From: a virus
Length of the DNA: 64,000 nt
IMG/VR virus record: IMGVR_UViG_3300005323_000046
Coordinates: 1 to 64,000 of that record
Direction: 5' to 3' (one strand)
The stretch's first letter is position 1. Every line of letters starts with the position of its first letter. The position numbers were made by a program, and so were the translations under genes. The notes under the pieces are model-generated. The model had not been told where the DNA came from, made no database searches, and worked only from the letters and a program-made list of their open reading frames with translations. Below are positions 49,337-64,000 of the stretch, piece by piece.

Positions 49337-49356
49337 TCCACATTGACCGTAATCTA

Positions 49357-49370
49357 TTTATACTATTAAG
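49357..49370 (+). promoter_or_regulatory. promoter-like motif TTTATACTATTAAG
   Basis: Variant of the recurrent motif at the start of the 340-nt ORF-free leader. Confidence 0.35.
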
Positions 49371-49680
49371 TTAATAATTTAAGTTCGTCCCAAGGGAAAA
49401 CCATTCTTAGCTCCATGTCGTCTCCTTCCCAACGCCGCCCTCTTCCGGCGTGGTCCGTTATGTCTCCTCGCGGGCCTATAATCTACCCCTTGGGATTCTC
49501 TCCCTATTTTATTAATTTCTTTTAGTAGGCTTACGCCATCGACAACTATTTAAGCCCACGATCCAGTATTAATAATGTTTTAATAAAGGTGATTTTATTC
49601 CGATCAAAGCCCTTGGCAGAAAAGCCTATCACAGAATTCCTCATTTACTCGGATCTCACGCCGAAAAGGGAGACTTCTTT

Positions 49681-51390
49681 GTGAATGAAGGAATGGACAG
49701 AATATGTACCCGTAAAGCGCGAGATTCTAAAGACAAAATAGTCGTGCAGGAGAAACTAGATGGCTGTGTGCCATATCGGACAATGATTATAACGTCAGAA
49801 GGCAGAATCCCAATAGGAAAAATAGTCGGGAAAAGAATGCCGGTAGAGATCGCAAGCTATAATTTAGAAAAGGAAATCATAGAATGGAAACCTATTGAAG
49901 AATATCATAAATATGTCAATACAGATAAACCACTTATAAGAATTTTAGTTAAATCTAAAAAGCGCGGGAACCCAATATGTAAAATTGTATGTACCCCGAA
50001 TCATCAATTCTTTACTGATACGGGGTACGTAGAAGCAAAAGATTTATTACCAAACCAAATTGTATACCAATTTTCGGATAAATTAGATTATATTACTAAG
50101 CAAATAGTTCTAGGAACTCTCTTGGGAGACGGATCGATTAGTCGATCGTGTCCACAAAGTCCAAATGCCAGATGCGCTATTGTGTTTGGACACTGCGAAA
50201 AACAAAAAGAGTATTATGAGACTAAATGCGAAATTTTAGGAAATTTGATTTCTGGTAAAGACATTAGACGTGGTGGTTACGAAGGGAGTACGAATATTTA
50301 CCGTGCCCATACTCACGCAACAATGGGTCTGGATAAACTTATAAGAGAACATTGTTTAATAGATAACAAAAAAGGGGTCACTGAAAAATGGGTAAATGCA
50401 CTTGATCCGTTAGCCCTCGCTATTTGGTATCAAGACGACGGATCAAGTACATTTAGTAAAGAACAACGTCCTAGGCTCCATTTTGCGACAAATGGCTTCT
50501 CTTGGGAAATGGTCGAAAAATTAAAAGACTGTTTAAAAAATCGCTTCGGTATCGATAACGAGATCTTTGATTACAAAGGTCCCACTATTGCCGTAACCGC
50601 AGACGGAACAGAAAGGTTGTTCGGAATTATCGCCCCATATATTTCAGATTCAATGAAATATAAAATTTTTGAAAATTTCAGGAATATTCCGTGCATCTTA
50701 AACAATTTGGTACCGAATAAACCCTTGAACGGGATTATAGAAACAGAAGTAGTCAGGACCGAATCGAACGTTAAAGTATGGGAAATGCCTAAAACGCAGT
50801 ACGACCTTACCATTAAAGATAATCACAACTATTTTGCTGGAGATATTTTAGTACACAACTCGTCATGTGCAGTAGCACGAATTGATGGAATTTTAACACC
50901 AGTAACCCGTAAAGGTTGGCAGGCAAATACATCTAAATTTAAACAACATAGATTGTTTTCCGACTGGTTCTATAAACATCAGGATGAATTTGAGTTTCTA
51001 GAGGATGACCAAAGACTTTGTGGAGAATGGCTGGCCCAGGCTCATGGGACACGCTATAAATTACAGCACGAACCGTTTGTGGCATTTGATCTCCTTGGTC
51101 CCGGTGGAGCTAAAACGGTAGAAGTATTCAACTCTATTGTTCCGTCATTCTTCCCTAGACCTTATATTCTTCATGAGGGAGGCCCAATAACCACTCAAGA
51201 AGTAGATGCCTTAATTGGGAAATTTGGTCATCATGGAGCGCTAGAGCTTGCCGAAGGAGCAGTCTATAGAGTAGAAAGAGAAGGAAAACTTGATTTTATG
51301 GCTAAATATGTACGAAAAGAAAAGAAGATTGGACAATATTTAGGAGATCATGAAGAAATATGGAATGAAGGATTAGAAAAATTTCTATGA
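49681..51390 (+). CDS. Rnl/ligase-like nucleotidyltransferase interrupted by an intein
   Basis: Extein motif I EKLDG|S is split by the intein; after the intein come motif III CGEWL, motif IV EGAVYRVE and motif V AKYVRKEK; the spliced extein would be ~204 aa. Confidence 0.65.
   Translation: MNEGMDRICTRKARDSKDKIVVQEKLDGCVPYRTMIITSEGRIPIGKIVGKRMPVEIASYNLEKEIIEWKPIEEYHKYVNTDKPLIRILVKSKKRGNPICKIVCTPNHQFFTDTGYVEAKDLLPNQIVYQFSDKLDYITKQIVLGTLLGDGSISRSCPQSPNARCAIVFGHCEKQKEYYETKCEILGNLISGKDIRRGGYEGSTNIYRAHTHATMGLDKLIREHCLIDNKKGVTEKWVNALDPLALAIWYQDDGSSTFSKEQRPRLHFATNGFSWEMVEKLKDCLKNRFGIDNEIFDYKGPTIAVTADGTERLFGIIAPYISDSMKYKIFENFRNIPCILNNLVPNKPLNGIIETEVVRTESNVKVWEMPKTQYDLTIKDNHNYFAGDILVHNSSCAVARIDGILTPVTRKGWQANTSKFKQHRLFSDWFYKHQDEFEFLEDDQRLCGEWLAQAHGTRYKLQHEPFVAFDLLGPGGAKTVEVFNSIVPSFFPRPYILHEGGPITTQEVDALIGKFGHHGALELAEGAVYRVEREGKLDFMAKYVRKEKKIGQYLGDHEEIWNEGLEKFL
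49765..50859 (+). mobile_element. intein with a LAGLIDADG homing-endonuclease domain (365 aa)
   Basis: Starts with Cys (CVPYRTMIITSEG), block B TPNHQF, LAGLIDADG motifs LGTLLGDGSI and LAIWYQDDGSS, ends ..ILVHN followed by the +1 Ser. Confidence 0.75.
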
Positions 51391-51633
51391 CCGAAATCCT
51401 TAAATACTTTTAGTACCATTACATAGGTTTCAAACTAGCTTATGTGGAGGTAACTAAAATGAAATTATCTCGGGACCTTAATTCTGTTCAAAATCGAATT
51501 ATCGCCAAGACTACGAAGAACAAAGAAGATATCTGACAGATAACATTGTAACCATGCGAGCAATGTTCAAGAAGTATAAAAAGATAAACGGTAGATAACC
51601 TACCAAAAACTATTTATTCTAGCGCCGCATTAT

Positions 51634-52938
51634 TTGAGTATCAAAGAGGAGCATAAAACTATGACAGAAAATTTCGATCTAAATGCCGCGATACAGCGCG
51701 GAGTTGAAGCGACAGGACTCAACAAAGATACTTTTAAGGATAAGTACGCAGCCAAACTTAAGGTTCTTCAGGATGCAAAGACAAAGCCATTCAACCTGAA
51801 TGTCGGAGGGATAGCTAAGATCCTAACCGTGGAAGAAATGGCAGTTAATCAGGTTATCTCTTGCGAAAAGGCCGCTTCCAAGGGAGATACAGAGATATTG
51901 TTTTATCTCGAAGCTCAAGACGATGCGAAACTTACAAAAAATGGCAAGACGTTTTCCAATCTATATATTATCGTTCCCGTAGGAAATAATACTGACCTAT
52001 TCCATTCTGAGTCTAAAACCGAAGAGTGTGTAAGGATCAGAACTACACATTGGAACAACAAGTCCTTCCGACCTGGATTCTATAGGGGCAAACTCAACAA
52101 ATCAATTAGAGATGGATACACCAACTATGGAATAAATGATATCGGTACAACAGAAAGAACCTTTACAGTCCCACAAATGGCTCAAGGAGTTCCGTTTAGA
52201 ATCTTGGCGGCATACGACCCCAAGCCTGTAATGAGAAACTCAAAGGACGCAGATGGGCAGGTCGCGAAAGGAGAAGATGGGAAGTTCCTTAAGGAGCCAG
52301 TTTACAAGAAAGCTCGGGACGGACAAATTTCCGCAGAGCCTCTTATGTCTCGCTCGATGGAGATTCTTGTTCTTAACTCTAATGGAACTACCGAGGCTCG
52401 GACTGTTTCTACGGTATTCGATGAGTGGATGGCCCACAAGGTAGACTTTGGAGCGACATATAAGGGAGTTCTAAGAGAGAATGGACCTTATTGGAATCTT
52501 AATAGCAAACCAAACACATCCAGTGAGAAAATCACGATAGATGATAGTTTGGCTTGTGATGTTATTGCGGACCTTAATGGAATTCGTAATTACGCTGGTA
52601 AATTTGTGAAATTACAACCAATGTTTGGGGATGCAATTGTAGAAGTAAAGCAGAATCCAGAAAAAGGAACTAAAATAGGTTATACTACGATCTCAGATAT
52701 GAGCGCTAATTCCATTAATATCATTGGAGATGCAGCCATATTTGACTTTGTAACGGGTCCCAAAGGAAACCTCGCTGGAATCGTACAGGTGATTGGGAAG
52801 GTGTTTATTAACAAAGAGAGAGATACTCCCGGAATAAGGGCATACACAATAAAGGATATTAGCTCTGGGATGCCTTCTGAACCGATAAAGATAGATGAGG
52901 GAACGCCGAAGGATGCCGTCGCATCTGAGGCGTGGTAG
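51634..52938 (+). CDS. hypothetical 434-aa protein (possibly highly expressed or structural)
   Basis: Long ORF followed directly by a terminator-like hairpin. Confidence 0.45.
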   Translation: MSIKEEHKTMTENFDLNAAIQRGVEATGLNKDTFKDKYAAKLKVLQDAKTKPFNLNVGGIAKILTVEEMAVNQVISCEKAASKGDTEILFYLEAQDDAKLTKNGKTFSNLYIIVPVGNNTDLFHSESKTEECVRIRTTHWNNKSFRPGFYRGKLNKSIRDGYTNYGINDIGTTERTFTVPQMAQGVPFRILAAYDPKPVMRNSKDADGQVAKGEDGKFLKEPVYKKARDGQISAEPLMSRSMEILVLNSNGTTEARTVSTVFDEWMAHKVDFGATYKGVLRENGPYWNLNSKPNTSSEKITIDDSLACDVIADLNGIRNYAGKFVKLQPMFGDAIVEVKQNPEKGTKIGYTTISDMSANSINIIGDAAIFDFVTGPKGNLAGIVQVIGKVFINKERDTPGIRAYTIKDISSGMPSEPIKIDEGTPKDAVASEAW

Positions 52939-52961
52939 GCTTCGGCCTAGGCTTTATTTTT
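52936..52961 (+). terminator. candidate intrinsic terminator
   Basis: TAGGC-TTCG-GCCTA hairpin (UUCG loop) followed by GGCTTTATTTTT. Confidence 0.45.
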
Positions 52962-52977
52962 AGGAGGTTTAATTAAG

Positions 52978-53121
52978 ATGTTAGGCATATCAGAATTTGC
53001 TATTGTGTTATGTGCGTTTGCACTTGGTTTGGATGTTGCAGTTAAGTCGTACCACTGGGCTACAGTAATGTTTCTATGTATAGTGGCGAATGCATATTCC
53101 CTTGGATGGTTCACGCATTAG
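52978..53121 (+). CDS. small hydrophobic peptide (47 aa; not in the ORF track)
   Basis: TAGGAGG 9 nt upstream of the ATG; MLGISEFAIVLCAFALGLDVAV.. Confidence 0.35.
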   Translation: MLGISEFAIVLCAFALGLDVAVKSYHWATVMFLCIVANAYSLGWFTH

Positions 53122-53275
53122 GGGTTCTATGCTATCCGTTAACATCGTAGATAATATGACTGAACTTGCCGCTAAAAAATATCTCAAATTAATCATTCAG
53201 TCTTTAAACGCATTAGATACTGAAGACTTTTTTGGAACAGAAGGATGGAGAAAATATTTAGGATTTGAGGAATAA
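53090..53275 (+). CDS. hypothetical small protein
   Basis: 61-aa ORF; start uncertain. Confidence 0.3.
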   Translation: MHIPLDGSRIRGSMLSVNIVDNMTELAAKKYLKLIIQSLNALDTEDFFGTEGWRKYLGFEE

Positions 53276-53277
53276 TT

Positions 53278-53520
53278 ATGTTAGACCAACAATTTATCGA
53301 CGAAATTAAGGCGTGCGCCGAGAAACTACTTAACACCTCTCAAGCACTATATGACAAGGCACAGACTCTAACTGCTAATGAATCTGATAAAGATATTGCT
53401 CAAAAGATAGTTGCTATTGAGGGATATCTTGAACTTGTTGGCGGCGGGAAGAGGGATGTGAATAAAGCAAGAAAAGCTATAGCACAAGAGCTAAATGTTT
53501 ATGCGGGAATAGGGGAGTAG
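53278..53520 (+). CDS. hypothetical protein
   Basis: 80-aa ORF. Confidence 0.4.
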   Translation: MLDQQFIDEIKACAEKLLNTSQALYDKAQTLTANESDKDIAQKIVAIEGYLELVGGGKRDVNKARKAIAQELNVYAGIGE

Positions 53521-53523
53521 GAG

Positions 53524-53907
53524 ATGTTCCTTCCAGATAATCCTATTTTGTTCCCTAAACCAAAATTTGTTAAATGTCCCAAGTGTAATGATACTTGGTA
53601 TTGGCGAACTTGGTACAAGGGATCAAGAACTACAGCCTGTTCTAATTGTAAATTTAAAGTAGTTCCACAAGAAATTCCAGGTAATAAAGCAAGACTTATT
53701 AGATGTCCTAAATGTCATAGATTGCAATGGTATACTGGAGATAAACCTAGAACAACCTGTACCAAGAAAGATTGTAAACGGAGGAATATGATTGTTCAGG
53801 TAGCAACTAAAGATGAATTGTGTAAAATTCTTAAGTCGTTTTTAAACGGACTCAATTCGTCTGAAACGGAAAAATATTATTTAGATAGGATAAAGGAACA
53901 CTCTTAA
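53524..53907 (+). CDS. double zinc-ribbon protein
   Basis: CPKCND..CSNC and CPKCH..C. Confidence 0.4.
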   Translation: MFLPDNPILFPKPKFVKCPKCNDTWYWRTWYKGSRTTACSNCKFKVVPQEIPGNKARLIRCPKCHRLQWYTGDKPRTTCTKKDCKRRNMIVQVATKDELCKILKSFLNGLNSSETEKYYLDRIKEHS

Positions 53908-54124
53908 AGTAATATTTTTACTATAATTAAAGGAGTATGATACTTTGTTCTGCCCTAAGATAAACAACGAATGTGTTTTAGATAAATGCGTAGCTTATAT
54001 TCCAAAAGAGGAGTCTTGTGTCATGAGAAAAAATTGCGAGTCGCTAGAGAGAATTGCAATTGCTCTCGAAAGAATTTTAGCGACCAGATATGGTCGTTGA
54101 CCATTTTTTTAAGGAGAATTACTT

Positions 54125-54592
54125 ATGCCAGATCCATTTACTACTGAAGAAGACTCTATTTTAAAGGAATTTTACGGAAAAATCCCTATTAGGAGAAATA
54201 TTAAAAAAGAATCTCTACAAGATAAACTCTGGGGCCGATCAGAGAGTCAAATTATAAATAGAATAAAAGAACTAGAATTGAACGTCCCAAAATTAGAATA
54301 CCTACATCACTACAATCAAGAAGATATTGAATATTTAAAAAAGAATTATGCAACCACTTCTTGGGAAGAATTAATCTTTATGTTGGGGCGAGATAGAGAT
54401 AGTATTGCAGGTAAAGCATCTAAACTCGGCTTAAAAAGAGCAGAACGAGAGTCTACGTGGTCTTTTGGCGACAGAGAATTTTTAATTGAAAATTATTCTA
54501 CGATGACCGCAAAAGAAATTGGAAATAAATTGGGAAAATCAAGTTTTTCTGTATATCACCGAGCAGGGAAAATGGGACTGAAGAAGAGATGA
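54125..54592 (+). CDS. protein with three helix-turn-helix-like DNA-binding repeats
   Basis: Three ~45-aa repeats (..EED..L...Y...S.-..I...LGR.....-....KLGLK) related to the N-terminus of the LAGLIDADG endonuclease at 27901. Confidence 0.45.
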   Translation: MPDPFTTEEDSILKEFYGKIPIRRNIKKESLQDKLWGRSESQIINRIKELELNVPKLEYLHHYNQEDIEYLKKNYATTSWEELIFMLGRDRDSIAGKASKLGLKRAERESTWSFGDREFLIENYSTMTAKEIGNKLGKSSFSVYHRAGKMGLKKR

Positions 54593-54777
54593 AACAAATA
54601 GATGAATCTGTAAAATTTCTGATTTGTTGCCTCGGAACACCATCTCTGGTAATATTACTTTTGTTTTTCGCGTCTTATGTCGCTAATCCCGCTCAAACAA
54701 TTGATGGAAAATCTATTATTACACTATTATCTTTGGTCTTTTTCGGGGTTATGTTTATTTTTAGTCTGAGGAGATGA
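54589..54777 (+). CDS. small membrane protein
   Basis: 2 predicted transmembrane segments. Confidence 0.35.
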   Translation: MKQIDESVKFLICCLGTPSLVILLLFFASYVANPAQTIDGKSIITLLSLVFFGVMFIFSLRR

Positions 54778-54802
54778 TTTAATTGGAAATCAATAAAATT
54801 TA

Positions 54803-55006
54803 TTGCGGGAATTCTTTGGCAATGGAGAGAATATGGAAATGAAACTGTATGACATATTTGACAAAATTGGAATTTTCATCTTGATATTATCCCTTTGGTC
54901 TTTATTGTCAAGTAGAGTAATGATTTCTCTCGCTCTTATGTTTACGGGATATGCAATTCTCGGAATTAATATGATGATTAGAAATACTGTAACTGGATGG
55001 GGATAA
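54803..55006 (+). CDS. small membrane protein
   Basis: 2 predicted transmembrane segments. Confidence 0.35.
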   Translation: MREFFGNGENMEMKLYDIFDKIGIFILILSLWSLLSSRVMISLALMFTGYAILGINMMIRNTVTGWG

Positions 55007-55043
55007 AGACATTATTTTATTAATAACTTAAAGAGGGATAAAT

Positions 55044-55823
55044 TTGATATCTAGCGGAGCGGATCTAAAACCTTATAAGAATAAGGAATGGCTTAACGAG
55101 CAGATAAACATATTGGGAAAGACACAAAGGCGAGTTGCAAAGGAATGTAATTGCGCCGTTGGGACAATAAATAGATGGATAAATTACAATAAAACTATAG
55201 GAAAAGAACAAAAATACAGACTGGAGAACCATAAATCAATAATTGAGTATCAGAGAAGGTATAATGCACAATTAAAAACAAGATTGTTTGACATATTAGG
55301 CTACGAATGTGTTATGTGTGGAGAATCAAATAAAAAGTATTTAACATTTGACCATATAAATAACGACTCTAAGATCGATAAAAAGATATATGGCGAAAAC
55401 TATATCTATGGAATGATCCAACACTGGAATAAAACAGCATGGCCCAAGGATATAGAAATAAGAAAAAAAATACAAGTTTTAGATTACAATTGCAACTGTG
55501 GTGTTAAGCGACGCGAATATTTTAATCTGCCAAAATCAAAAATAACCAAATCCCAAAAACGACAAATAAATCTTTGGAGAAAAGCGTATAACTTTTTTGG
55601 ACCATGTAGAATTTGCGGTGATAAAGATTTAATTCACTTGTGTATTGGGCACGTAAACCATAACGGAGCTGAAATGAGACGAAACGGAGAAACAGATTCA
55701 ACAAAATTACTAGCTAAATGGAAAGAAGCAAAATGGCCAGAAGAACTAAAAGAAAGATATTCTCTAGAATGTTTTAACGACAACTGCAATCGATTTAGTG
55801 AAAGCGAAGGAAAAATTATTTAG
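55044..55823 (+). CDS. HNH-like endonuclease, paralogue of the gene at 62686
   Basis: YECVMCGESNKKYLTFDHINND and CRICGDKDLIHLCIGHVNHNG; also shares AKWPEELKERY and FFGPC with the 62686 protein. Confidence 0.5.
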   Translation: MISSGADLKPYKNKEWLNEQINILGKTQRRVAKECNCAVGTINRWINYNKTIGKEQKYRLENHKSIIEYQRRYNAQLKTRLFDILGYECVMCGESNKKYLTFDHINNDSKIDKKIYGENYIYGMIQHWNKTAWPKDIEIRKKIQVLDYNCNCGVKRREYFNLPKSKITKSQKRQINLWRKAYNFFGPCRICGDKDLIHLCIGHVNHNGAEMRRNGETDSTKLLAKWKEAKWPEELKERYSLECFNDNCNRFSESEGKII

Positions 55824-58800
55824 GTGATTAAATTGGATCTTAAAACTCTTTCTCAAGAAATTCGAAACTGTAAAAAATGTTCCCTTTGCAAATCTAGAAA
55901 AAATGTTGTTATCGGTCGCGGTTCACAAACTCCAGAAATACTATTTATCGGAGAAGGACCCGGAGAATCGGAGGACATCGAAGGAAAACCTTTTGTTGGT
56001 AGATCTGGAATGTTACTAGACCGAGCTATTTCCGAGACGGGAATAAAGAACTTTGCAATAATTAACATCATAAAGTGTCGTCCAGAAAATAACAGAAAAC
56101 CAACAAAAGAAGAAATTGAAGCTTGTTCTACCTGGTTGGAACAGCAACTAAATCTTCTAAATCCTAAAATAGTAATTTTACTCGGGAATACATCGTTAAA
56201 TTACTTCTTCCCAGATAAAACAATCACGCGAACAGTCGAAGAAACAACTTTATCTGGAAAAACATTCACGAAAGACGGAAGAAGATTTATCGCTATATTT
56301 CACCCGTCGTACATCTTACGTGGAAAAATGCCCGTTGCAGATTATGTTAAAATCTTCGAGCGTGTAAACTTTTTTCTTAAAGCTGGATCGTCATGTAGCC
56401 AAATTACGCCAGAGCAATCTATAACCGATCCACTTCCCAGTCCTTTAAGATCTCCTATTCCAAACGGTCCTCAACCAATTACTCCGCTTCCTACCGGATA
56501 TTCAATAAAACAAAGATATGTGCCGCTACATACTCATTCCGAACACGGAAGCGTCGGCGACGTTTTCCGGACTCAAGATGAAATGGCAGAAGATCTATTT
56601 CAAAAAGGATTTAAAGCATGTGCCATAACAGATCATGGCTCTCTTTCTGGCCTTCCTTATTTTCAGAATGCTCTTAAGAAAAAAGGAATCAAACCCATTA
56701 TTGGTTTAGAAGCTTACATAGAAGAATCCGAGAAGAAACAGAGCCACCTTGTTCTTCTTGTTAAAAATGAAATAGGATACAAAAACCTATTAAAACTTCA
56801 CACAATCGCAAAAGAACACGTCCATAAAGTATTCAATAAAGTGTTCCAGAAAATTCCTCTTGATGAGATTTGTAAACATTCAGAAGGATTAATCTGTAGC
56901 ACCGCGTGTGTTAGTGGAACAGTGGCACAAAGATGGAAAAGAGGAGATAATCCAGAACCCATTATACAAAAACTCCAAGAAGCGTTTGAAGAGGATCTTT
57001 ACGTCGAGTTAATGCCGAATAGACTAGAAGAACAAATAAGGTTTAACGAATATATAATTAATGTAGCAAGAAAATATAATATTAAACCAATAATTACTAC
57101 CGACTCTCATTACAATTCGCCAGAAGATAAGCATTATCACGATCTTGTAAAAGCAAATGAATGGAGAAAAAAGATTACAGATAAAATTGGATTCTCGGAC
57201 GATACATTTTGTAATTTAACTTGTGACCAAATAGAATCCCTATTAAAAACATGTCATCCCAAAATATATCCTATTATGGAGGAACTATTCGCGAATACCT
57301 TAGAAGTAGCAAACAAGTGTACTTTTGAATTACCGTCAAATCTAGGGGATACTTTGCCTGGGATTGAAGAGGAAGCAAGAGAAAAAATATTAAAAAGAAT
57401 AGATATTGAAGGTTATACTAAAAAAAATAACTACGATCCTTTAATTGTAAACGAAAGAATAAAAAAAGAGGTAGATCTGTTAACCTCCAGAAAATTTTTT
57501 AATTATTTTGATAAAGTCATGTATATGGTTGATTATGCAGATTCTCATGATATCCCGAGAGGACCTGGAAGAGGCTCGGTAGGCGGTTCCCTACTTGCAT
57601 ATTTGTTAGGAATTACAAAGGTAGATCCTCTAAGATTTAACACATTGTGGGAAAGATTTTTAACTCCAACTCGAACACCAGATATTGATATGGATTTTAG
57701 CGCTAAAAAGAGAGAAAGTATAATTGGAAGCTTAAGACTGGAATATGGACCCACAAACGTGTCTTATATCATGACATTTAACGAGTGGTCCGACAAATCA
57801 GCAATTAAGGATGTCGCAAGAATTTACAACGTTCCTCTATCTGAAGTGAATAAATTTAACAAAGAACTCTCTACTAAGACCGCGGAGAATCTTAAAATAG
57901 AGGATATAATTCTTACATCTGAAACTGCCGCGGAATTTGCAAAGAAATATCCTGAAGTAATAGATGCTGCTGTTAAACTAAAAGGAAAAATTAGACATAT
58001 AGGACTCCACGCAGCAGGGGTAGTAATTTGCAAGGACCTGGAAAGTACAATTCCAACAGAAATATACGATAAAGGAGACATAAAAAATTGTCTCGCTGCA
58101 AGTTTTGAAAAAGATATGTTGGAGCGTTTAGGTATTATTAAATTCGACGTCCTGGGAATCTCCGTACTAGATGTAATCGACGGAACATTAAAATCATCTG
58201 GACTTGGATGGGATATTTTACCGGAGGATTATGCTGATCCCGATGTATTTAATCTTTTAAGATCTGGAAAAACTTCAGGTGTTTTCCAATTTGGATCTCA
58301 ATTAATTACAGATTATCTAAGACATTTAAATGTCGATAGGTTTGAAGATCTTCTAGCTGCAAATTCCCTCTGCCGCCCCGGACCATTAAACGGAGGAGAA
58401 GCAGCAAGATATGTTGAAAGAAAAAATGGAGCAGAATGGGATTACGATCACCATCTGCTAGAAAAGGTAACTAACGAGACGTTAGGAGTTCTAATATACC
58501 AAGAACAAATCATGAAAATCGCCAATATAATCGGCGGATTTTCTATGATAGAAAGTGAAAAATTCTTAAAACTTGTCAGTAAAAGCAAAGGAAAAGAGGC
58601 GATTCAAGAAAAATATGACCAATTCTTGACAGGAGCAATATCAAATGGAATGCCGGAAGAAATAGCCGAACATCTATTTCAAACAATGTTGGAATTTGGA
58701 CGTTATAGTTTTAATATGATTCATTGTATAGAATATTCTATGCTCGGTTATTGGACAGCATGGTTGAAATTGTATCACCCTCTTGCGTTTTATTCGTCTC

Positions 58801-59846
58801 TTATTAATGTAGAATCAGATGAAGTTCAGTCTCTGTCCTTTGTGAAGGAAGCAATTGATTCAGGAGTGGTAATTAAACCTCCCAGTGTAGAATCTCCGTC
58901 AGAATTGACCACTTTTGATAAAAGTAAAAATATAATTTATTTAGGATTAAACAAAGTCAAGGGAATTGGCCCAGAAGAGATAAAAAAGGTTCTTGCCGCA
59001 GGAGACAACTTTGACAAGATAAAGAAAATTAAAAAGAATGTCTTCCAAACGCTCGTAGAGGTCGGTTATTTAGATTCTATAGAGAAGAATCGCAGGCAAT
59101 TATTAAGTGGCAAGGAACTCACTAAGAACACTCTGTGGGCGTGGTCCTCGGAACCGAATACAAGCGACGACTGGTCTGAGGAGGAAAAGATGTTTAGGCT
59201 CCGAAAGTCTTTGCCCTGGCCTAGATCATACGAGGAATTACCCAAAATCAAAAACGAGTCTTTTAGAAAGCCACTAAGTTATTTGAAATCTGAATCTGTA
59301 GAAAATAAAGCAATTCTTTCCGTAGGATGGGTTTATGATCATAAAGCTTTCAGCAGTAATGGAAAAACTTCGTATGTTCTAAATTACGAGGACGGAACCT
59401 CAAGAGTTACCTTGAATTTATCCGCCGTAGTTTCAAGAAGACACAAAGAAATCGTAGATAGAATTGTTAAAGGAGAACAAAAGAATCCTTTGATATTCTG
59501 TCTCCAGCCCTATTACATGAATAGAGGCCACATAGAAGTTAGAGAGGGAAAACTACAAATACTATGGATAGGTAACATAGAGGATGAAATGTCTAAGAAT
59601 GTATTAAGAGGACTGGAAGGAGATACGGAGATTCTAGGACCTAGAGAGTTCTTAGTCACAAATATCAGTTACGGAACTTCTAAAGCTGGTAATGGATTTG
59701 CTTCGATAGAATGCGTAGATAATACAGGGAACGTGACTTACGGAGCTTTTATGTTAAGGGACTCTTTGGCAGCTCCACAATTTGGAACAATTTTACACGG
59801 TAGCTGGAGCGTATCCAATAAAGGTTCTTTTTTTAGAGGTGAATAA
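55824..59846 (+). CDS. dnaE: DNA polymerase III alpha subunit fused to an N-terminal family-4 uracil-DNA glycosylase domain
   Basis: UDG family 4 motifs GEGPGESED and HPSYILRG with Fe-S cysteines; Pro-rich linker; PHP domain HTHSEHGS; Pol III alpha core GPGRGSVGGSLLAYLLGIT; 1340 aa; GTG start. Confidence 0.9.
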   Translation: MIKLDLKTLSQEIRNCKKCSLCKSRKNVVIGRGSQTPEILFIGEGPGESEDIEGKPFVGRSGMLLDRAISETGIKNFAIINIIKCRPENNRKPTKEEIEACSTWLEQQLNLLNPKIVILLGNTSLNYFFPDKTITRTVEETTLSGKTFTKDGRRFIAIFHPSYILRGKMPVADYVKIFERVNFFLKAGSSCSQITPEQSITDPLPSPLRSPIPNGPQPITPLPTGYSIKQRYVPLHTHSEHGSVGDVFRTQDEMAEDLFQKGFKACAITDHGSLSGLPYFQNALKKKGIKPIIGLEAYIEESEKKQSHLVLLVKNEIGYKNLLKLHTIAKEHVHKVFNKVFQKIPLDEICKHSEGLICSTACVSGTVAQRWKRGDNPEPIIQKLQEAFEEDLYVELMPNRLEEQIRFNEYIINVARKYNIKPIITTDSHYNSPEDKHYHDLVKANEWRKKITDKIGFSDDTFCNLTCDQIESLLKTCHPKIYPIMEELFANTLEVANKCTFELPSNLGDTLPGIEEEAREKILKRIDIEGYTKKNNYDPLIVNERIKKEVDLLTSRKFFNYFDKVMYMVDYADSHDIPRGPGRGSVGGSLLAYLLGITKVDPLRFNTLWERFLTPTRTPDIDMDFSAKKRESIIGSLRLEYGPTNVSYIMTFNEWSDKSAIKDVARIYNVPLSEVNKFNKELSTKTAENLKIEDIILTSETAAEFAKKYPEVIDAAVKLKGKIRHIGLHAAGVVICKDLESTIPTEIYDKGDIKNCLAASFEKDMLERLGIIKFDVLGISVLDVIDGTLKSSGLGWDILPEDYADPDVFNLLRSGKTSGVFQFGSQLITDYLRHLNVDRFEDLLAANSLCRPGPLNGGEAARYVERKNGAEWDYDHHLLEKVTNETLGVLIYQEQIMKIANIIGGFSMIESEKFLKLVSKSKGKEAIQEKYDQFLTGAISNGMPEEIAEHLFQTMLEFGRYSFNMIHCIEYSMLGYWTAWLKLYHPLAFYSSLINVESDEVQSLSFVKEAIDSGVVIKPPSVESPSELTTFDKSKNIIYLGLNKVKGIGPEEIKKVLAAGDNFDKIKKIKKNVFQTLVEVGYLDSIEKNRRQLLSGKELTKNTLWAWSSEPNTSDDWSEEEKMFRLRKSLPWPRSYEELPKIKNESFRKPLSYLKSESVENKAILSVGWVYDHKAFSSNGKTSYVLNYEDGTSRVTLNLSAVVSRRHKEIVDRIVKGEQKNPLIFCLQPYYMNRGHIEVREGKLQILWIGNIEDEMSKNVLRGLEGDTEILGPREFLVTNISYGTSKAGNGFASIECVDNTGNVTYGAFMLRDSLAAPQFGTILHGSWSVSNKGSFFRGE

Positions 59847-59924
59847 GGTGGTTATTAAAATTCAACTGAAACATGGATTAGCAACGGAAATAGATGAAGA
59901 AGACGCGGAACTAATAAAACATAA

Positions 59925-60365
59925 TTGGTGTGTAGATATACGAAAAAAAACTCCAACAAACTGTATTACGTTTCTACTTCTGTTCTTCTACCTAACGGAC
60001 TACGCAAAAAACTCTATTTGCATCGTGCAATTATGAAAAATTTTTTAGGTAGAGATCTTACTTATCATGAAAAAATTGATCATGTTAATCATAACGGACT
60101 TGATAATCGACGCAGTAATTTGAGGCTCGCCACAATACAAGAAAATCAGTTTAATCGACAAATTCAGAAAACTACTAAAAGCAGCCAATATAAAGGAGTT
60201 TCGTGGGAAACGAAGCAAAATAAGTGGAGACCTTCAATAAAATTTAATAACCAAAATATACATTTGGGATCTTTTACCTCCGAAGAGGACGCGGCCCGCG
60301 CGTATGACAAAGTCGCTAAAGAATTATTTGGTGAATTTTGTTGCCTCAACTTTCCGGAGGATTGA
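59925..60365 (+). CDS. HNH homing endonuclease with an AP2 DNA-binding domain
   Basis: HNH motif HVNHNGLDNRRSNLRLATIQENQ; AP2 domain YKGVSWETKQNKWRPSIKFNNQNIHLGSFTSEEDAARAYD. Confidence 0.75.
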   Translation: MVCRYTKKNSNKLYYVSTSVLLPNGLRKKLYLHRAIMKNFLGRDLTYHEKIDHVNHNGLDNRRSNLRLATIQENQFNRQIQKTTKSSQYKGVSWETKQNKWRPSIKFNNQNIHLGSFTSEEDAARAYDKVAKELFGEFCCLNFPED

Positions 60366-60532
60366 TTTCCCCTTTATAAACACAATCATTAACTAATATG
60401 TATATTTTGGTGTATAAGAGGAGGAAACCGTGACTCAAAAAAAACATAATGTATTTTTAGGCAGAATGAAGAGACTTTACCAGAAGTTTTATAACCTTGA
60501 AAATTGTATGAAAGGTATATTGTGAAAAAAAT

Positions 60533-60913
60533 ATGGAGAAAGACGAAATGACCCATAAATTTCTTTATAAGCAAGCAATTGTAGTTAGGGAAGATCTTAA
60601 AATGTCACCAGGAAAACTGGCGGTCCAAGTAGCTCATGCAAGCGTGGGGGCAATATACGGTTCAAATCTTCTTGCCCCCAATCTAGAGAACTGGTTTGCC
60701 GAAGGATTTAGAAAAATCGTCCTTAAAGTTAAATCTGAAAAAGATATTCTAAATATCAAAGAAAAGTGTAATAAAGAAGGAATACCTTATTTTCTGGTTT
60801 ACGATTTTGGACTTACAGAGCTGGAACCTAATGCTTTAACCTGTATAGGAATTGGACCAGATCTTAACGAGAACATAGATAAAATTACAGGGAGATTGGG
60901 GTTGTATAAATGA
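60533..60913 (+). CDS. pth2: peptidyl-tRNA hydrolase, PTH2 family
   Basis: Matches PTH2 across its length: VVREDLKMSPGKLAVQVAHASV .. VLKV .. FLVYDFGLTELEPNALTCIGIGP. Confidence 0.8.
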   Translation: MEKDEMTHKFLYKQAIVVREDLKMSPGKLAVQVAHASVGAIYGSNLLAPNLENWFAEGFRKIVLKVKSEKDILNIKEKCNKEGIPYFLVYDFGLTELEPNALTCIGIGPDLNENIDKITGRLGLYK

Positions 60914-61341
60914 CTAAAATCTATTTAGCCTCTTCTTGGAAAAATAAAAAAGCTGTAGACCGTGTAGCAAAAGAATTATCTAATCTTGGTTATGAAGTAG
61001 ATAATTTTACCGATCCATCTAATGGAAGATTTGTTTTCTCTTGGACGGAATTGCCACAAGAAATTCTTCAAAATTTAAATGCGAAAACATTTTTAAAAGA
61101 TTGGAGAACTCAAAAAGCTTTTAAACAAGATAAAGAGAAGATTGATTGGGCTGATGCCGTAGTAATGATAATGCCCTGCGGAAGATCTTCTCATTTAGAA
61201 CTTGGATATGCCGCGGGAAAGGGAAAGAAAACCATAATATATTATCCTAACGGATTCATTAATGGAGAGTTTGAAACTATGTATGGATTTGCAGATGTAA
61301 TAACAAGTTGCATAGAAGATGTTTGGATGGAACTAGCATGA
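60910..61341 (+). CDS. nucleoside 2-deoxyribosyltransferase-like protein
   Basis: KIYLASSW .. ADAVVMIMPCGRSSHLELGYAAGKGKKTII fits the NDT/DUF4406 Rossmann pattern. Confidence 0.5.
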   Translation: MTKIYLASSWKNKKAVDRVAKELSNLGYEVDNFTDPSNGRFVFSWTELPQEILQNLNAKTFLKDWRTQKAFKQDKEKIDWADAVVMIMPCGRSSHLELGYAAGKGKKTIIYYPNGFINGEFETMYGFADVITSCIEDVWMELA

Positions 61342-61589
61342 CTAAATATCATATTTCTTATGTAAGCTATCTTTTACGTTTAACAATTTATGACGACATT
61401 ATTGATATTCACCCCCTTATTTGGAGATCTAAAAACTTAGATGATGTTTTAATTGCTTGGAGCGAAATTCCAGAAGAAATTGAAAATCAGGTGGAAGAGA
61501 TCGAAAAAGAGAGGATACGGTTAATCAAAGAGAGAACAACCAGACAACTAGAAGATTTAAAAGAAAGATTGAAAAGGCCTAGGAGATAA
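61308..61589 (+). CDS. hypothetical protein
   Basis: 93-aa ORF overlapping the upstream gene. Confidence 0.3.
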   Translation: MHRRCLDGTSMTKYHISYVSYLLRLTIYDDIIDIHPLIWRSKNLDDVLIAWSEIPEEIENQVEEIEKERIRLIKERTTRQLEDLKERLKRPRR

Positions 61590-61592
61590 CCT

Positions 61593-61997
61593 ATGTACTA
61601 CATTAATACTACTTACGCAGCTCGTTTAAGGGCGCAAGAAGAATTCAAGTGTGAAGAATGTGGGAACTGTTGCACTCAATGTGCTCCCATAGATGTCACA
61701 ATGGAGGATCTTAAAAGAATTGCAGACTACTTTGGTAAGTCGTTAAAAGTTGCAGCAAAAAGACATTGTAGAATCAATCCCGCAAATGGTTCACTAATTA
61801 TTAAGCACGATAGACCTTGTAAGTTTTACGATCTTAAAAACAAGAAATGCAAGATTTATGAGGCCCGTCCAGAAGTTTGTAGGCTTCATCCGTTCCTCAG
61901 TTCAGAACCAATTGAGAGTAGAACGTTCACGGTTCCAATCCACTGCGAAGCCGCTTGTAAAGTACACGATAGGATGAGAGAAAGGAGAGAGATATGA
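61593..61997 (+). CDS. YkgJ-family CxxCxxCC Fe/Zn-binding protein
   Basis: CEECGNCCTQC plus CKFYD..CKIYEARPEVCRLHP. Confidence 0.5.
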   Translation: MYYINTTYAARLRAQEEFKCEECGNCCTQCAPIDVTMEDLKRIADYFGKSLKVAAKRHCRINPANGSLIIKHDRPCKFYDLKNKKCKIYEARPEVCRLHPFLSSEPIESRTFTVPIHCEAACKVHDRMRERREI

Positions 61998-62221
61998 ACC
62001 TACAATATAAAATCAGAAAATCTTTGTTAGAAAAGTCTCCTCAAACAATTCCGTCATTATGCAGAAACATCCCAGAGGCGACAAATGAGTTTGCTATAAT
62101 GCACGCCATTGCGGAATTAGAACATATGGGCGACGTGATTCTTACCGGTTTCGATCGCATTTATCGCGAAGATGGTGGAGCGATTTATTTAGCAGAATAT
62201 TCGATAAAGGAACAAACATGA
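61994..62221 (+). CDS. hypothetical protein
   Basis: 75-aa ORF. Confidence 0.35.
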   Translation: MNLQYKIRKSLLEKSPQTIPSLCRNIPEATNEFAIMHAIAELEHMGDVILTGFDRIYREDGGAIYLAEYSIKEQT

Positions 62222-62613
62222 ACAACAATTGGCTACTTAGAGATCTTCCAGATTCATTTTTCATAAATGCTGGGAGGCACACAACTGAAGAGATTGATTC
62301 TTTATTTAAGGAAATTCCAGAAGAGTATAAGCTGTTGGCTTATAGTATAATTGTATTATCAGTAGAATCCACGCCAGAAATGAAACGATGTCAAGAGTTC
62401 AGACAACTCCTGTTCCTAGCATATAAAAAGCTACTAGAAGAAAACAAAATAGATCTCATGTTGCCCCACTATTGGTATGCAGATGGAGTTATGATTGAAC
62501 CAGAGTTAATCATACGGGTTACAAATGGCATCATTAGATGGGTCTGCGACGATAGCGTAGAAAAATGTTTAATGGAAGGAGAATGTAGATATTTTAAAAG
62601 AATGGAGGATTAG
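62218..62613 (+). CDS. hypothetical protein
   Basis: 131-aa ORF. Confidence 0.4.
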   Translation: MNNNWLLRDLPDSFFINAGRHTTEEIDSLFKEIPEEYKLLAYSIIVLSVESTPEMKRCQEFRQLLFLAYKKLLEENKIDLMLPHYWYADGVMIEPELIIRVTNGIIRWVCDDSVEKCLMEGECRYFKRMED

Positions 62614-62665
62614 AGACAATCATTTTTAAACCGTCTATAAATAAAATTATAGCCTCCGAAAAGTT

Positions 62666-62680
62666 TATATAGTATTAAAC
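62666..62680 (+). promoter_or_regulatory. promoter-like motif TATATAGTATTAAAC
   Basis: Recurrent motif 5 nt upstream of the 62686 ATG. Confidence 0.4.
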
Positions 62681-62685
62681 CTTTA

Positions 62686-63849
62686 TTGAATAATATGTCT
62701 GATATCTTATCTTTAAAAGAAAAAGAAAAAGAGAAAACAAGGAGAAAAGCTTACTATGAGGAAAACAAAGAAAAAATTAATGCTCAAAAAAGAGAACGAA
62801 GGAGGAGAAATCACGAAGAGGAATTAAGGAAACAAAGAGAATATAGAGAGAAAAACCGAGAAAGGTACAATGAATTGGCTAGGAACCAATATTGGAAAAA
62901 TCCAGAAGAAAACAGAAAACGCGCACTCGATTATGTAAACAAAAATCGTGAAACAATAAATAAACGTAATAGAGAAAAATACGCAGATAATCCCGAACAA
63001 TACATAGCAAAAACAAAAGAATATTACAAAAATAATAAAGAGAAAGTCGATCAAAAGGCTAAAGAACGCTATTGGGAAAACCCACACGTTTTCAGAAAAA
63101 GATCTAAAAAATATCGCGAGGAAAATAAAGAAGAGATTATCGCAAAAGACAGGATTTACAAAAAAGAAAATAAAGAGGTCCTCAAAAGAAAACAATATGA
63201 AAAATACTGGATCACAACAAAATATGAAGGACAAAGGAAACAAGAAATTTTATTCAATAAAATTCTATCTATTTTAGGAGACTCGTGCGCAGAATGCGGA
63301 ATAAAAGACCGAGATGTTCTTACCATAGATCATATTAAAAACAACGGAAAACAAGAACGTAAAATTCTCGGAAAAGGAAGAAGTCGTTTAATGGCACGCC
63401 TCGAAAAATTAGGTTGGCCCGAAGAATACATTAAAGAAAATTATCAAATTTTATGTTATAACCACAACTGCGCCAAAGAATCAAGAAATTATTTTGACAA
63501 GCCCGAAAAAGATCTTGATCGATATCAAAGAAGATATGTTCGAATTTGGAAAGAAGCTTTTAATTTTTTTGGACCGTGTGAAAGATGTGGCGAGTCTAAC
63601 CTGAAATTTTTATGTATAGACCACAAGAATGGAGATGCTAAAAAAGACAGAAAAATCAGAACAAGAAGAAGCGGAATAAAATTGATTGATATATTTAGAA
63701 AAAATAATTGGCCAAAGTCCTTAAAGAAGGAATATAGATTTCTTTGTTGGAATTGTAATACAAAAGTCTATTTAGAAAAATTAAGAGCTGAAGAGGGGAT
63801 AAAATATTATTTTCATTGCTTATTTACCTCGCTACCACATCAGCCATAG
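62686..63849 (+). CDS. HNH-like endonuclease with an N-terminal highly charged K/E/R repeat region
   Basis: CAECGIKDRDVLTIDHIKNNG and CERCGESNLKFLCIDHKNGD; about five ~23-aa repeats (Y..N.E......R..Y..NPE) at the N-terminus. Confidence 0.5.
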   Translation: MNNMSDILSLKEKEKEKTRRKAYYEENKEKINAQKRERRRRNHEEELRKQREYREKNRERYNELARNQYWKNPEENRKRALDYVNKNRETINKRNREKYADNPEQYIAKTKEYYKNNKEKVDQKAKERYWENPHVFRKRSKKYREENKEEIIAKDRIYKKENKEVLKRKQYEKYWITTKYEGQRKQEILFNKILSILGDSCAECGIKDRDVLTIDHIKNNGKQERKILGKGRSRLMARLEKLGWPEEYIKENYQILCYNHNCAKESRNYFDKPEKDLDRYQRRYVRIWKEAFNFFGPCERCGESNLKFLCIDHKNGDAKKDRKIRTRRSGIKLIDIFRKNNWPKSLKKEYRFLCWNCNTKVYLEKLRAEEGIKYYFHCLFTSLPHQP

Positions 63850-64000
63850 CTTGGATGGGATCATCTCCATCTGCGACTTTATCTAACACTTTGGAAACCG
63901 CGGAGTCTACTTTGGGTTGGACCTTTTGTCCTAAATCCTCTTCTGACTCAAAATTTTCTTGGAGCCGGATTCCAATTACACTGCTGTTAATCCAGTTCCT
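63825..64000 (-). CDS. partial C-terminal fragment of a minus-strand gene running off the window
   Basis: Open frame ..VDSAVSKVLDKVADGDDPIQAMADVVAR* convergent with the HNH gene, overlapping it by ~25 nt. Confidence 0.3.

Follow-up and report, generated by a model that had tools for sequence, protein, structure and literature searches.

Known associations of uracil-DNA glycosylases with viral replicases

[quoted passage not shown] More precisely, its polymerase carries an N-terminal family-4 UDG followed by a PHP domain and a DNA polymerase III alpha core, and a methanogen-type thymidylate synthase (TS) gene lies nearby. A parallel arrangement is found on family A polymerases: UDG-PolA fusions have been described in phages SPO1, SP-10 and SP-15, and in CP-51-like and N4-like phages (PMC10201439). 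In these proteins, of which one has been solved (PDB 9qhs), a family-4 UDG is likewise placed N-terminally on a viral replicative polymerase; some members retain all the catalytic residues while others have lost them, and a dCMP deaminase gene often adjoins.

Poxviruses reach a comparable association without a fusion. Vaccinia D4 acts as a processivity factor as well as a UDG: in the D4-A20-E9 complex it is a stoichiometric part of the viral replicase, aids processivity and is still an active repair enzyme (PMC10253040; PMC4889955). D4 is, however, a family-1 UDG, has no Fe-S cluster, and is bound non-covalently, via A20, to a family B polymerase. Standalone family-4 UDGs are free proteins of ~190-205 aa, and those of archaea join the replisome non-covalently via PCNA.

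A single gene for glycosylase and polymerase

The window, i.e. the whole 64-kb stretch of viral DNA analysed here, contains a UDG-DnaE fusion polymerase gene at positions 55824..59846 (+), with a GTG start that adjoins the stop codon of the upstream ORF. The frame encodes 1340 aa and has no internal stop. The sequence-only reading had proposed an in-frame fusion of a UDG to Pol III alpha, and this was borne out: both parts of the ORF are matched by Pfam and NCBIfam models, the UDG match (PF03167, residues 31-175) preceding the Pol III alpha domains in the same frame. Moreover, a protein 100% identical to it (P0001, which begins at an alternative TTG, codon 4 of the fusion gene) is encoded on a separate ENA contig of 20.4 kb, in which the genes follow the same order. 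The fusion is thus confirmed as real and, with domain E-values as low as those reported below, it is far beyond chance.

In comparison with PhiF1, the relationship is distant: the two proteins match at 31-35% identity, in two tblastn pieces covering residues 6-1094 of the query, and ~1.27 kb of extra sequence separates the matching parts in PhiF1. Furthermore, the annotation divides the PhiF1 polymerase between two CDS that overlap in different frames, whereas the window gene is one clean frame. The architecture is already known and the window gene is a further member; considering the PhiF1 annotation and the published UDG-PolA parallel, its novelty is below what had first been implied.

The glycosylase domain

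The family-4 (Fe-S) UDG domain spans residues 4-186 (55833..56381, +), as assigned from Pfam, NCBIfam, motifs, AF2 and Foldseek. The Pfam match has an E-value of 3.2e-30 (score 105.5 vs cutoff 24.3) and the NCBIfam model TIGR00758 (UDG_fam4) is passed with 146.8 bits vs a cutoff of 125.3, while the narrower archaeal equivalog NF040953 stays below its cutoff (159 vs 250). The AF2 model of the domain (pLDDT ~90) has the alpha/beta/alpha UDG fold, with Foldseek TM values of 0.83-0.86 and rmsd of 2.0-3.5 Å against the standalone enzymes TM0511 (1L9G), Thermus thermophilus UDGA (1UI0) and S. tokodaii UDG (4ZBX). These share 32-39% identity with it (Foldseek) and have identical motifs and Fe-S cysteines; the window domain differs from them in being fused to a polymerase. 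TM0511 is the closest solved match (1.5e-40), with all motifs and cysteines aligned. We also considered UdgX, and this identity was rejected (TIGR03914, 110 vs cutoff 190; PDB UdgX entries ~74 bits vs ~142 bits for UDGa entries).

The motifs and the four Fe-S cysteines that had been described as intact hold up against the solved family-4 UDGs, including Thermus UDG-A (1UI0). Motif A (GEGPG, residues 43-47) aligns with GEGPGE of 1L9G and 1UI0, motif B is HPSYILRG at residues 160-167, and F57 and N81 match conserved family-4 positions. C16, C19, C85 and C101, the candidate Fe-S ligands, fall on the cluster cysteines in alignments with TM0511 and TthUDGA. E44, P46 and G47 are invariant in alignment A2, and across 20 fusion proteins (35-100% identity) the invariant positions are C16, C19, E44, P46, G47, F57, N81, C101, H160 and P161. 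From these alignments we infer that the N-terminal UDG is catalytically competent.

The linker and the polymerase domains

Residues 187-228 (56382..56507, +) form a disordered Pro/Ser/Thr-rich linker; the Pro-rich character previously noted was confirmed by a count made by eye (10/42 Pro, 24%). Considering its low pLDDT (24-40, with an overall pTM of 0.53) and its variable length and composition among relatives, the linker is modelled more plausibly as a flexible tether than as a rigid dock. In UDG-PolA models, by contrast, the UDG is fixed in place, sandwiched by the exonuclease and polymerase domains.

After the linker come, as expected from the sequence-only reading, the PHP domain and the Pol III alpha core. 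The PHP domain (residues ~229-510; 56508..57353, +; delimited by Pfam and alignment with Taq) has its Pfam match at residues 235-397 (1.1e-32). Nine candidate metal ligands, aligned with those of the Taq PHP domain, are invariant in A2 (H236, H238, D246, H271, E296, H308, C362, D427 and H429), so the domain is likely a 3'-5' proofreading exonuclease; in UDG-PolA the proofreading domain is instead DnaQ-like. The palm/thumb core (DNA_pol3_alpha, residues 524-778; 57393..58157, +; 1.9e-61) contains the acidic residues D620 and D622 (PDIDMDF; PDIDTDF in Taq) and D775 (IKFDVLG), and the columns of this triad are nearly invariant in alignments A1 and A2. Conservation of the triad and of the nine PHP ligand positions relative to Taq Pol III alpha suggests a competent polymerase. 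The fingers domain (residues 790-942; 58191..58649, +; Pfam 3.7e-40) and a duplex-binding helix-hairpin-helix (HhH) domain (residues 1014-1093; 58863..59102, +; Pfam HHH_6, 1.2e-8) follow.

Residues ~1112-1142 (59157..59249, +) form a conserved, predicted-disordered motif (alignment A1, pLDDT 45-58) reading DWSEEEK..R.RK.L.WPRS..ELP, in which W23, E27, L36, P39, E44 and P46 (A1 numbering) are nearly invariant. It occupies the position of the internal clamp-binding motif of bacterial DnaE and, by eye, does not match the clamp motif QL[SD]LF; it may be a putative partner-binding site. The C-terminus (59301..59843, +) consists of two tandem OB folds, residues ~1160-1255 and 1270-1340 (AF2 pLDDT 84.5), with no Pfam match and with Foldseek matches to HIN-200, D. 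radiodurans SSB, Teb1, RPA, LEF-3 and the PolC OB. No tau-binding-like fold was recognised there by AF2 and Foldseek.

The domain order PHP, palm/thumb, fingers, HhH and OB is of the DnaE type, and TIGR00594 is matched with 654 bits vs a cutoff of 434 (NCBIfam). The cellular DnaE equivalog models all fall below their cutoffs (e.g., NF004226, 635.6 vs 1002), while phrog_405, a viral DnaE subfamily, is matched at 9.9e-232. A family A core, as in UDG-PolA, was rejected: the core is family C, and phrog_17 covers the UDG part alone (E 1e-3). The order of PHP, palm, fingers and HhH and the catalytic aspartates are shared with the bacterial DnaE of Taq (2HPI), M. tuberculosis (DnaE1, 5LEW/7PU7) and E. 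coli (2HNH), and, like PHP-proofreading enzymes, the window protein retains intact PHP ligands. Unlike bacterial DnaE, which has a single OB and a tau-binding domain, the window protein has an N-terminal UDG and two OB folds.

Recurrence of the fusion

A total of 97 protein clusters were classed as UDG-DnaE fusions, 64 with the UDG at the N-terminus and 33 at the C-terminus; no fused gene was present among the best 80 matches of a species-representative genome scan. The catalytic E/F/N/H set is complete in 37/45 N-terminal, 15/19 N+X and 23/33 C-terminal fusion clusters, i.e. in ~77% of fusion clusters vs 96% of standalone UDGs. Coupled uracil removal, uracil sensing and a DNA-clamp role, the functions suggested by the sequence-only reading, all retain some probability, and such conservation favours a catalytic role. 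Conversely, 22 of the 97 clusters (~23%) retain the domain after losing at least one catalytic residue (e.g., E44 to L/Q/N, F57 to L), which indicates that catalysis is not the sole selected property of the fused UDG. All four Fe-S cysteines are kept in every one of the 33 C-terminal clusters.

The mean identity between N- and C-terminal UDG domains is 0.28, and that to standalone UDGs is 0.38 and 0.29, respectively; nearest neighbours never fall across the two fusion sets. As the two sets are no closer to each other than to standalone UDGs, they appear to be independent captures, at least two in number. Capture at least twice, at either end of the polymerase, argues strongly that viruses gain from having a glycosylase at the fork. 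Replicase-coupled uracil surveillance arose repeatedly, as archaeal Pol B read-ahead, PCNA-bound UDGs, poxvirus D4 and UDG-PolA, and the UDG-DnaE family represents the same solution on a third major replicase family, family C.

Genome context and probable host

Among the genes for nucleotide metabolism, the window encodes a Dcd/dUTPase-like protein (20820-21401) and a TS-like protein (39834-40577). The latter is very divergent and lies below the family cutoff; it matches TIGR03283, the model for methanogen-type thymidylate synthase, with 66 bits, and its sole relative in the phage database is a TS annotated in a Methanobacteriales virus. The window also encodes NrdD, an ATP-dependent ligase, two radical-SAM/SPASM proteins and a nucleoside deoxyribosyltransferase-like protein. 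Neither an AP endonuclease nor a sliding clamp was found within the 64 kb, which are only a part of the genome; the complete virus genome is probably ~130-145 kb.

In relatives of the fusion, ThyX, dCMP deaminase and NT5C genes adjoin the polymerase, and two UDG-DnaE contigs (L006 and L007) carry a canonical ThyX beside it. This context is non-discriminating, since close DnaE relatives without the UDG have an identical ThyX and deaminase neighbourhood. On a further contig (L005), a DnaE with a C-terminal UDG lies directly downstream of a radical-SAM/SPASM gene and a PF20691 TAGT gene, TAGT being the TET/JBP-associated glycosyltransferase family; a RecA of bacterial type and a 5'-3' exonuclease are also encoded on this contig.

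TnpB relatives, the methanogen-type TS and a TATA-like promoter motif are archaeal-virus signals, and on their basis the host is probably a methanogenic archaeon. A family C polymerase is unusual in a methanogen virus; a 2016 survey found the C-family class confined to bacteriophages (PMC4889955).

Proposed function and alternative explanations

We give a probability of about one half to the following reading: the gene encodes the replicative family C polymerase of a probable methanogen virus, with its PHP domain and a tethered, competent UDG that excises uracil at the fork. The DnaE-type enzyme would replicate a large viral genome with its own PHP proofreading exonuclease, and the ~42-residue tether would provide each polymerase with one glycosylase at the fork. 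Uracil could derive from dUTP misincorporation or from cytosine deamination in the viral DNA, in an AT-rich genome for which dTMP is apparently made via dCTP/dCMP to dUMP. The UDG would excise it during or just after synthesis, and host or viral AP-processing enzymes, the fusion polymerase and the ATP-dependent ligase of the virus would complete the repair. The UDG is also likely to contribute non-catalytically, by providing an extra DNA contact for processivity or retention; the loss of catalytic residues in some fusion clusters also points to such a role. Excision at the fork is open to an objection: if uracil were removed from single-stranded template that the polymerase has yet to copy, a blocking abasic site would result, so that a fork-tethered UDG, if unregulated, could be harmful. 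The missing AP endonuclease in the 64-kb window also counts against this reading. Whether the UDG excises misincorporated dU, stalls on template dU or adds DNA affinity is directly testable, given the cultivable PhiF1 and the many conserved sequences.

The alternatives differ in what they make of the junction and of the UDG chemistry. That sequencing or assembly errors joined separate udg and dnaE genes is hardly credible. Errors or recoding do occur in the family, as the split PhiF1 polymerase suggests, but that break falls after the N-terminal part of PHP and not at the UDG/PHP junction. The window junction is identical on the separate contig, a relative (P0005) is intact in both Logan and JGI assemblies, and all 36 UDG-bearing proteins among the best 120 relatives, down to ~30% identity, have a continuous frame. 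The possibility of a stop codon or frameshift at the junction, which would make the domains separate genes, is in this way answered indirectly, and an artefact is effectively refuted. Less easily set aside, but still unlikely, is that the UDG is chiefly a module for DNA binding or processivity, useful for retaining the polymerase on DNA or for organising the replisome, with its glycosylase chemistry dispensable or vestigial. The catalytic losses with retained Fe-S cysteines would fit this role, as would the polymerase without a recognisable tau-binding domain and the missing clamp in the window, even if a clamp may be encoded elsewhere in the genome. There are precedents in vaccinia D4 and in the N4-like UDG-PolAs, whose inactivated UDG was suggested by the authors to act in processivity (PMC10201439). 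Yet the long disordered tether is unlike the fixed position predicted for the UDG of UDG-PolA, and in the query clade the catalytic residues are all invariant down to 35% identity, more than a purely structural role would demand.

It is quite improbable that the UDG polices the pyrimidines of a hypermodified viral DNA, for example by removing plain U not open to modification or by telling 5-hmU from T, as proposed for SPO1-type UDG-PolA. The occurrence of UDG-PolA in the hmU phages SPO1, SP-10 and SP-15 (PMC10201439) is in line with this idea, together with the TAGT and radical-SAM/SPASM genes of L005, and the two radical-SAM/SPASM genes and the deoxyribosyltransferase-like gene of the window. 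The divergent TS-like protein could in principle be a hydroxymethylase, but it fits the methanogen-type TS and its phage relative is annotated as TS. Against modification there are also the canonical ThyX of L006 and L007 and an HD protein that is SpoT-like and not a dNTPase, and neither a 5-hmdU kinase nor a pyrophosphorylase-type gene was found. Still lower we place a template-uracil checkpoint, in which the tethered UDG would bind uracil, or excise it, in single-stranded template ahead of the active site and so stall the replicase before a deaminated cytosine is copied. Family-4 UDGs do act on single-stranded DNA, the genome shows archaeal-virus signals, and the template appears to be within reach of the tether. 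The uracil-binding domain of the window protein is N-terminal, as is the domain with the pocket by which archaeal Pol B recognises uracil in the template, stalling 4 nt short of it (PMC3627576). However, a UDG at the template entry is hypothetical and the host assignment is indirect, and the C-terminal UDG in L005, on a contig with a bacterial-type RecA, argues that such fusions are not confined to viruses of archaea.

A related and similarly improbable proposal is that a methanogen virus uses this C-family polymerase with its tethered UDG as a read-ahead checkpoint resembling those of Pol B and Pol D and that, together with PHP, it may be a single-polypeptide repair and replication enzyme. 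In B. subtilis PolX, AP-endonuclease activity resides in the PHP domain. Should the host indeed be a methanogen, the virus would join a very small number of archaeal viruses with a C-family polymerase.

A UDG and DnaE in one reading frame

The sequence-only reading described a family-4 UDG domain fused in frame, through a linker, to DNA polymerase III alpha (DnaE), a finding that is real and was well described. The claimed open reading frame was recovered at 55824..59846 (+), with a GTG start, 1340 aa and no internal stop codon, and the HMM boundaries from Pfam and NCBIfam agree in placing UDG, PHP, and Pol III alpha in this single frame. On this plus-strand gene, Pfam assigned a UDG-superfamily domain (PF03167, 3.2e-30) to residues 31-175, PHP to 235-397, the Pol III alpha core to 524-778, the fingers to 790-942, and an HhH domain to 1014-1093. 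Among the NCBIfam models, the product passed those for family-4 UDG (TIGR00758, 146.8 vs a threshold of 125.3) and for Pol III alpha (TIGR00594, 654 vs 434), and scored below threshold for UdgX and for all the cellular DnaE equivalogs. In PHROGs, the polymerase part matched the viral DNA polymerase family phrog_405 (9.9e-232).

The UDG motifs noticed at that stage, GEGPG (residues 43-47) and HPSYILRG (160-167), are present, as are the four Fe-S cysteines (Cys 16, 19, 85, and 101). Motifs and cysteines match residue for residue those of T. thermophilus UDGA (1UI0), the comparison that had been proposed, and also align in the same way with T. maritima TM0511 (1L9G, 1.5e-40) and S. tokodaii UDG (4ZBX).

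Predicted structure and polymerase competence

An AlphaFold2 model was obtained for residues 1-480, with 20 homologues as input; the remaining polymerase is absent from it. The UDG domain (residues 4-186) was confidently predicted, with pLDDT about 90, and so was the PHP domain, while the linker (residues 187-228) had pLDDT values of 24-40 and the overall pTM was just 0.53. Given these linker and pTM values, UDG and PHP look flexibly tethered rather than docked in a model that does not contain the rest of the polymerase. In Foldseek, the UDG part superposed on 1L9G, 4ZBX, and 1UI0 (TM 0.83-0.86) and the PHP part on the Pol III alpha of Taq, M. tuberculosis, and E. coli; no solved chain among the matches spans both parts.

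Judging from its residues, the polymerase looks fully competent. The PDIDMDF (D620, D622) and IKFDVLG (D775) motifs align with the Taq catalytic aspartates, and nine PHP metal-ligand positions (H236, H238, D246, H271, E296, H308, C362, D427, and H429) are invariant across the family, a conservation pattern also shown by DnaE enzymes that proofread with PHP. For the C-terminal 246 residues, Pfam gave no match and the fold was predicted with confidence (pLDDT 84.5); it matched tandem OB-fold DNA binders (HIN-200, the D. radiodurans two-OB SSB, Teb1, RPA, LEF-3, and PolC OB). On the basis of these matches, the polymerase is predicted to end in two OB folds, which would replace the one OB fold and tau-binding domain of the bacterial enzyme. 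A conserved motif that is predicted to be disordered, DWSEEEK..R.RK.L.WPRS..ELP (residues about 1112-1142; 59157-59249, +), follows the HhH domain and precedes the first OB fold, at the position of the internal clamp-binding motif of bacterial DnaE, and may be a docking site for some partner.

Recurrence and apparent independent captures of the UDG

That the fusion is an artefact of assembly is barely conceivable: a 100% identical protein (P0001) is encoded, among the same neighbours, on another ENA contig of 20.4 kb, and a 70%-identical homologue is unbroken in independent Logan and JGI assemblies. In a collection of 5.8 billion proteins, PF03167 and Pol III alpha domains occur together in 36 of the 120 best relatives, at 30 to 100% identity, and many further relatives came from an exhaustive HMMER search in which the N-terminal 420 residues were run against 1.84 billion cluster representatives.

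All 263 retrieved proteins were sorted with our own UDG, PHP, and "X-domain" profiles. Among them, the UDG is followed by PHP in 45 clusters (N-terminal class), by an unknown X domain and then PHP in 19 (N+X class), and lies at the C-terminus of DnaE in 33 (C-terminal class). The mean identity between N-terminal and C-terminal UDG domains was 0.28, and their identities to free-standing UDGs were 0.38 and 0.29, respectively. The two sets are thus no closer to each other than to free-standing UDGs, which, together with nearest neighbours that never cross between the two classes, points to at least two captures of a UDG by viral DnaE genes.

When 185,579 species-representative genomes were scanned with the same 420 residues, no fused gene was found among the best 80 matches; on this ground, the architecture looks virus-specific. 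Those 80 matches were standalone UDGs or plain DnaE, and no host assignment came from them. The closest UDG matches were to human-gut "Bacteriophage sp." contigs, which are short and carry the UDG alone. Within the phage collection, nearly all UDG domains reside inside PolA genes, the sole DnaE-type case being Methanobacterium virus PhiF1. The query is one member of a large and conserved family, apparently specific to viruses, that had previously been spotted at annotation level.

Unlike the query, PhiF1 has its UDG-DnaE gene annotated as two CDS that are in different frames and overlap by 80 nt (PhiF1 locus, 4001-8138). It matches the query in two pieces (query residues 6-503 and 569-1094), separated by about 1.27 kb of additional sequence; this arrangement might stem from an insertion, from a frameshift or from recoding. 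Inteins within UDG-DnaE itself were seen in three relatives (P0004, P0009, and P0017).

No paper on a UDG-DnaE fusion was found in the literature searched, where subscription journals are largely missing; the matches were UDG-PolA fusions (PMC10201439) and poxvirus and archaeal analogies. The family closely parallels the published UDG-PolA fusions, in which family-4 UDGs are joined to the family A polymerases of SPO1, SP-10, SP-15, and N4-like phages and are predicted to occupy a fixed place, flanked by the exonuclease and polymerase domains; in the N4-like fusions, the UDG domains are catalytically dead (PMC10201439). A solved UDG-PolA example of 1142 aa is available in the PDB (9qhs). The concept of a replicase-coupled UDG would itself be no surprise for replication and repair specialists; the added value lies in two independent fusion orientations and in the probable methanogen-virus setting.

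Active-site conservation and function of the fused UDG

Within the clade of the query, no catalytic or cluster residue varies, even in proteins of 35% identity. The full E44/F57/N81/H160 set was found in 37/45 clusters of the N-terminal class, 15/19 of the N+X class, and 23/33 of the C-terminal class, compared with 70 of 73 standalone UDGs; a minority of fusion clusters lost E44 or F57 and kept the cysteines. We read most lineages, the query's included, as probably under selection for glycosylase chemistry, with an additional benefit of the domain that would not depend on catalysis. In one subclade (P0029, P0030, P0032, P0039, and P0051; e.g. 10001-10560 of locus L007), the four Fe-S cysteines are replaced by A/K/I/F and GEAPG, Phe, Asn, and HPA are retained; these UDGs would be cluster-less and family-4-like.

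The best-supported reading is that an active family-4 UDG, tethered to the replisome, would remove uracil from viral DNA co-replicatively and would additionally supply a DNA contact. We infer the glycosylase activity, its site at the fork, and the agent that would process the abasic site; searching the window with Pfam and PHROGs revealed no AP endonuclease, no sliding clamp, and no clamp loader. We consider it unlikely that the UDG is mainly structural, after the manner of poxvirus D4, a UDG doubling as processivity factor (PMC10253040; PMC4889955). There is only a slim chance that it acts as a template checkpoint resembling read-ahead; in archaeal Pol B, template uracil is sensed via an N-terminal pocket (PMC3627576).

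A function connected with modified pyrimidines, which has been proposed for SPO1-type UDG-PolA fusions, appears quite improbable for the query, whose window carries a thymidylate-synthase (TS)-like gene of the methanogen type and an HD protein that is SpoT-like. Base modification in some lineages would fit locus L005, where a TAGT gene (PF20691; the TET/JBP-associated glycosyltransferase family) and a gene for a radical-SAM/SPASM protein, at positions 7216-9825 of the locus, precede a DnaE with a C-terminal UDG (P0049); DNA base hypermodification is hinted at in this phage. A restriction of the fusion to hmU or hypermodified-thymidine phages is weakened by the window's TS-like and HD genes and by ThyX genes adjoining UDG-DnaE in two other loci (L006 and L007). 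The function of replicase-fused UDGs is a directly testable question.

Gene content around the polymerase

The window, a block of genes for replication and nucleotide metabolism from a large virus, probably covers less than half of the viral genome, given that related contigs are up to 145 kb long. The replication and repair genes comprise a prim-pol/helicase (for which the phage collection offered no informative relatives), an ATP-dependent DNA ligase, an SNF2 helicase, and a DEDD exonuclease. Nucleotide metabolism is represented by NrdD with its activase and by Dcd/dUTPase-like, divergent thymidylate-synthase-like, and nucleoside deoxyribosyltransferase-like genes; PTH2, two radical-SAM/SPASM proteins, homing endonucleases, an intein, and a TnpB are also encoded. 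The ORFs at 51634-52938 and 62686-63849 had no Pfam match.

The stop codon of a conserved 259-aa Cys-rich HTH protein (55044-55823, +) abuts the polymerase start, and the same protein lies directly upstream of the polymerase in locus L002 and in the contig of P0015. Downstream are an HNH-AP2-type endonuclease (59925-60365, +) and the PTH2-type peptidyl-tRNA hydrolase and nucleoside 2-deoxyribosyltransferase-like genes (60533-61341, +); PTH2 is near the polymerase also in L002 and L092. Elsewhere on the plus strand, an RNA-ligase gene is split by an intein with a LAGLIDADG endonuclease (49681-51390), and NrdD and its activase are separated by a Myb+LAGLIDADG homing-endonuclease-like ORF (27901-28890). 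Of the radical-SAM/SPASM proteins, that at 42735-43754 (+) matched phrog_7293 (2e-85), and that at 44618-45685 (+) had weak viperin-like and PqqE-like matches.

In the relatives, ThyX, dCMP deaminase, NT5C or dUTPase adjoins the polymerase, with or without a UDG. Thus, these viruses appear to run a dC -> dU -> dT pathway beside the replicase, making dUTP misincorporation a plausible pressure. This nucleotide-gene context does not separate UDG-bearing from UDG-less polymerases.

Likely host

An archaeal host is somewhat favoured, with several independent hints of methanogenic archaea. This matters because the viral C-family polymerases in a 2016 survey were confined to bacteriophages (PMC4889955). 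For the TnpB/IS605 OrfB gene (9240-10379, -), which adjoins the prim-pol/helicase gene, the relatives with a named organism (53-65% identity) all come from Ca. Methanocrinis, Methanothrix or ANME-2. The very divergent TS-like gene (39834-40577, +; PF00303, 27 bits) scored 66 bits against the methanogen-type model TIGR03283 (cutoff 174), and its sole relative among 50,697 phage records is from a Methanobacteriales virus (vir249); its protein, which had no match in a PDB sequence search, might make either dTMP or a hydroxymethyl pyrimidine. The dUTPase-like gene matched NF002598, the archaeal-type dUTPase model. Among deposited phage records, PhiF1 is the best polymerase match and the sole cultured virus with UDG-DnaE.

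The motif TTWAWATAGTAWTAA occurs 24 times in the window (e.g. 10490-10504, 15628-15642, 21380-21394, 22930-22944, 36030-36044, 40586-40600, and 62664-62678 on the plus strand and 13683-13697 on the minus strand), against 6.5 +/- 2.6 expected. The best copies are found 20-55 nt ahead of a start codon, and the motif looks like an archaeal TATA-box-type promoter. A scan of 44001-64000 showed no enrichment of sigma-70 promoters and intrinsic terminators compared with shuffles. The fusion as such is not limited to archaeal viruses, as L005 carries bacterial-type RecA and 5'-3' exonuclease.

N-terminal modules in the relatives

The X domain measures about 160-275 aa, has no Pfam match and is marked by the motif E[MI]..LAGLH.F.K....F.D[IV]NQKD; in a whole phage DnaE clade it directly precedes PHP, whether or not a UDG stands in front. 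Its carriers are P0020, P0022-24, P0026-36, P0038-45, P0051, and P0058, and it is encoded just upstream of the PHP-coding region in loci L004, L006, L007, and L008. In two X-domain DnaE proteins, P0034 (residues 1-197) and P0038 (residues 1-193), a different N-terminal segment of ~190 aa, with no Pfam match and, by eye, a PD-(D/E)xK-like signature (E..D..E[IL]K), takes the UDG's place. This replacement suggests that DNA-processing modules are swapped at the N-terminal end of the polymerase.
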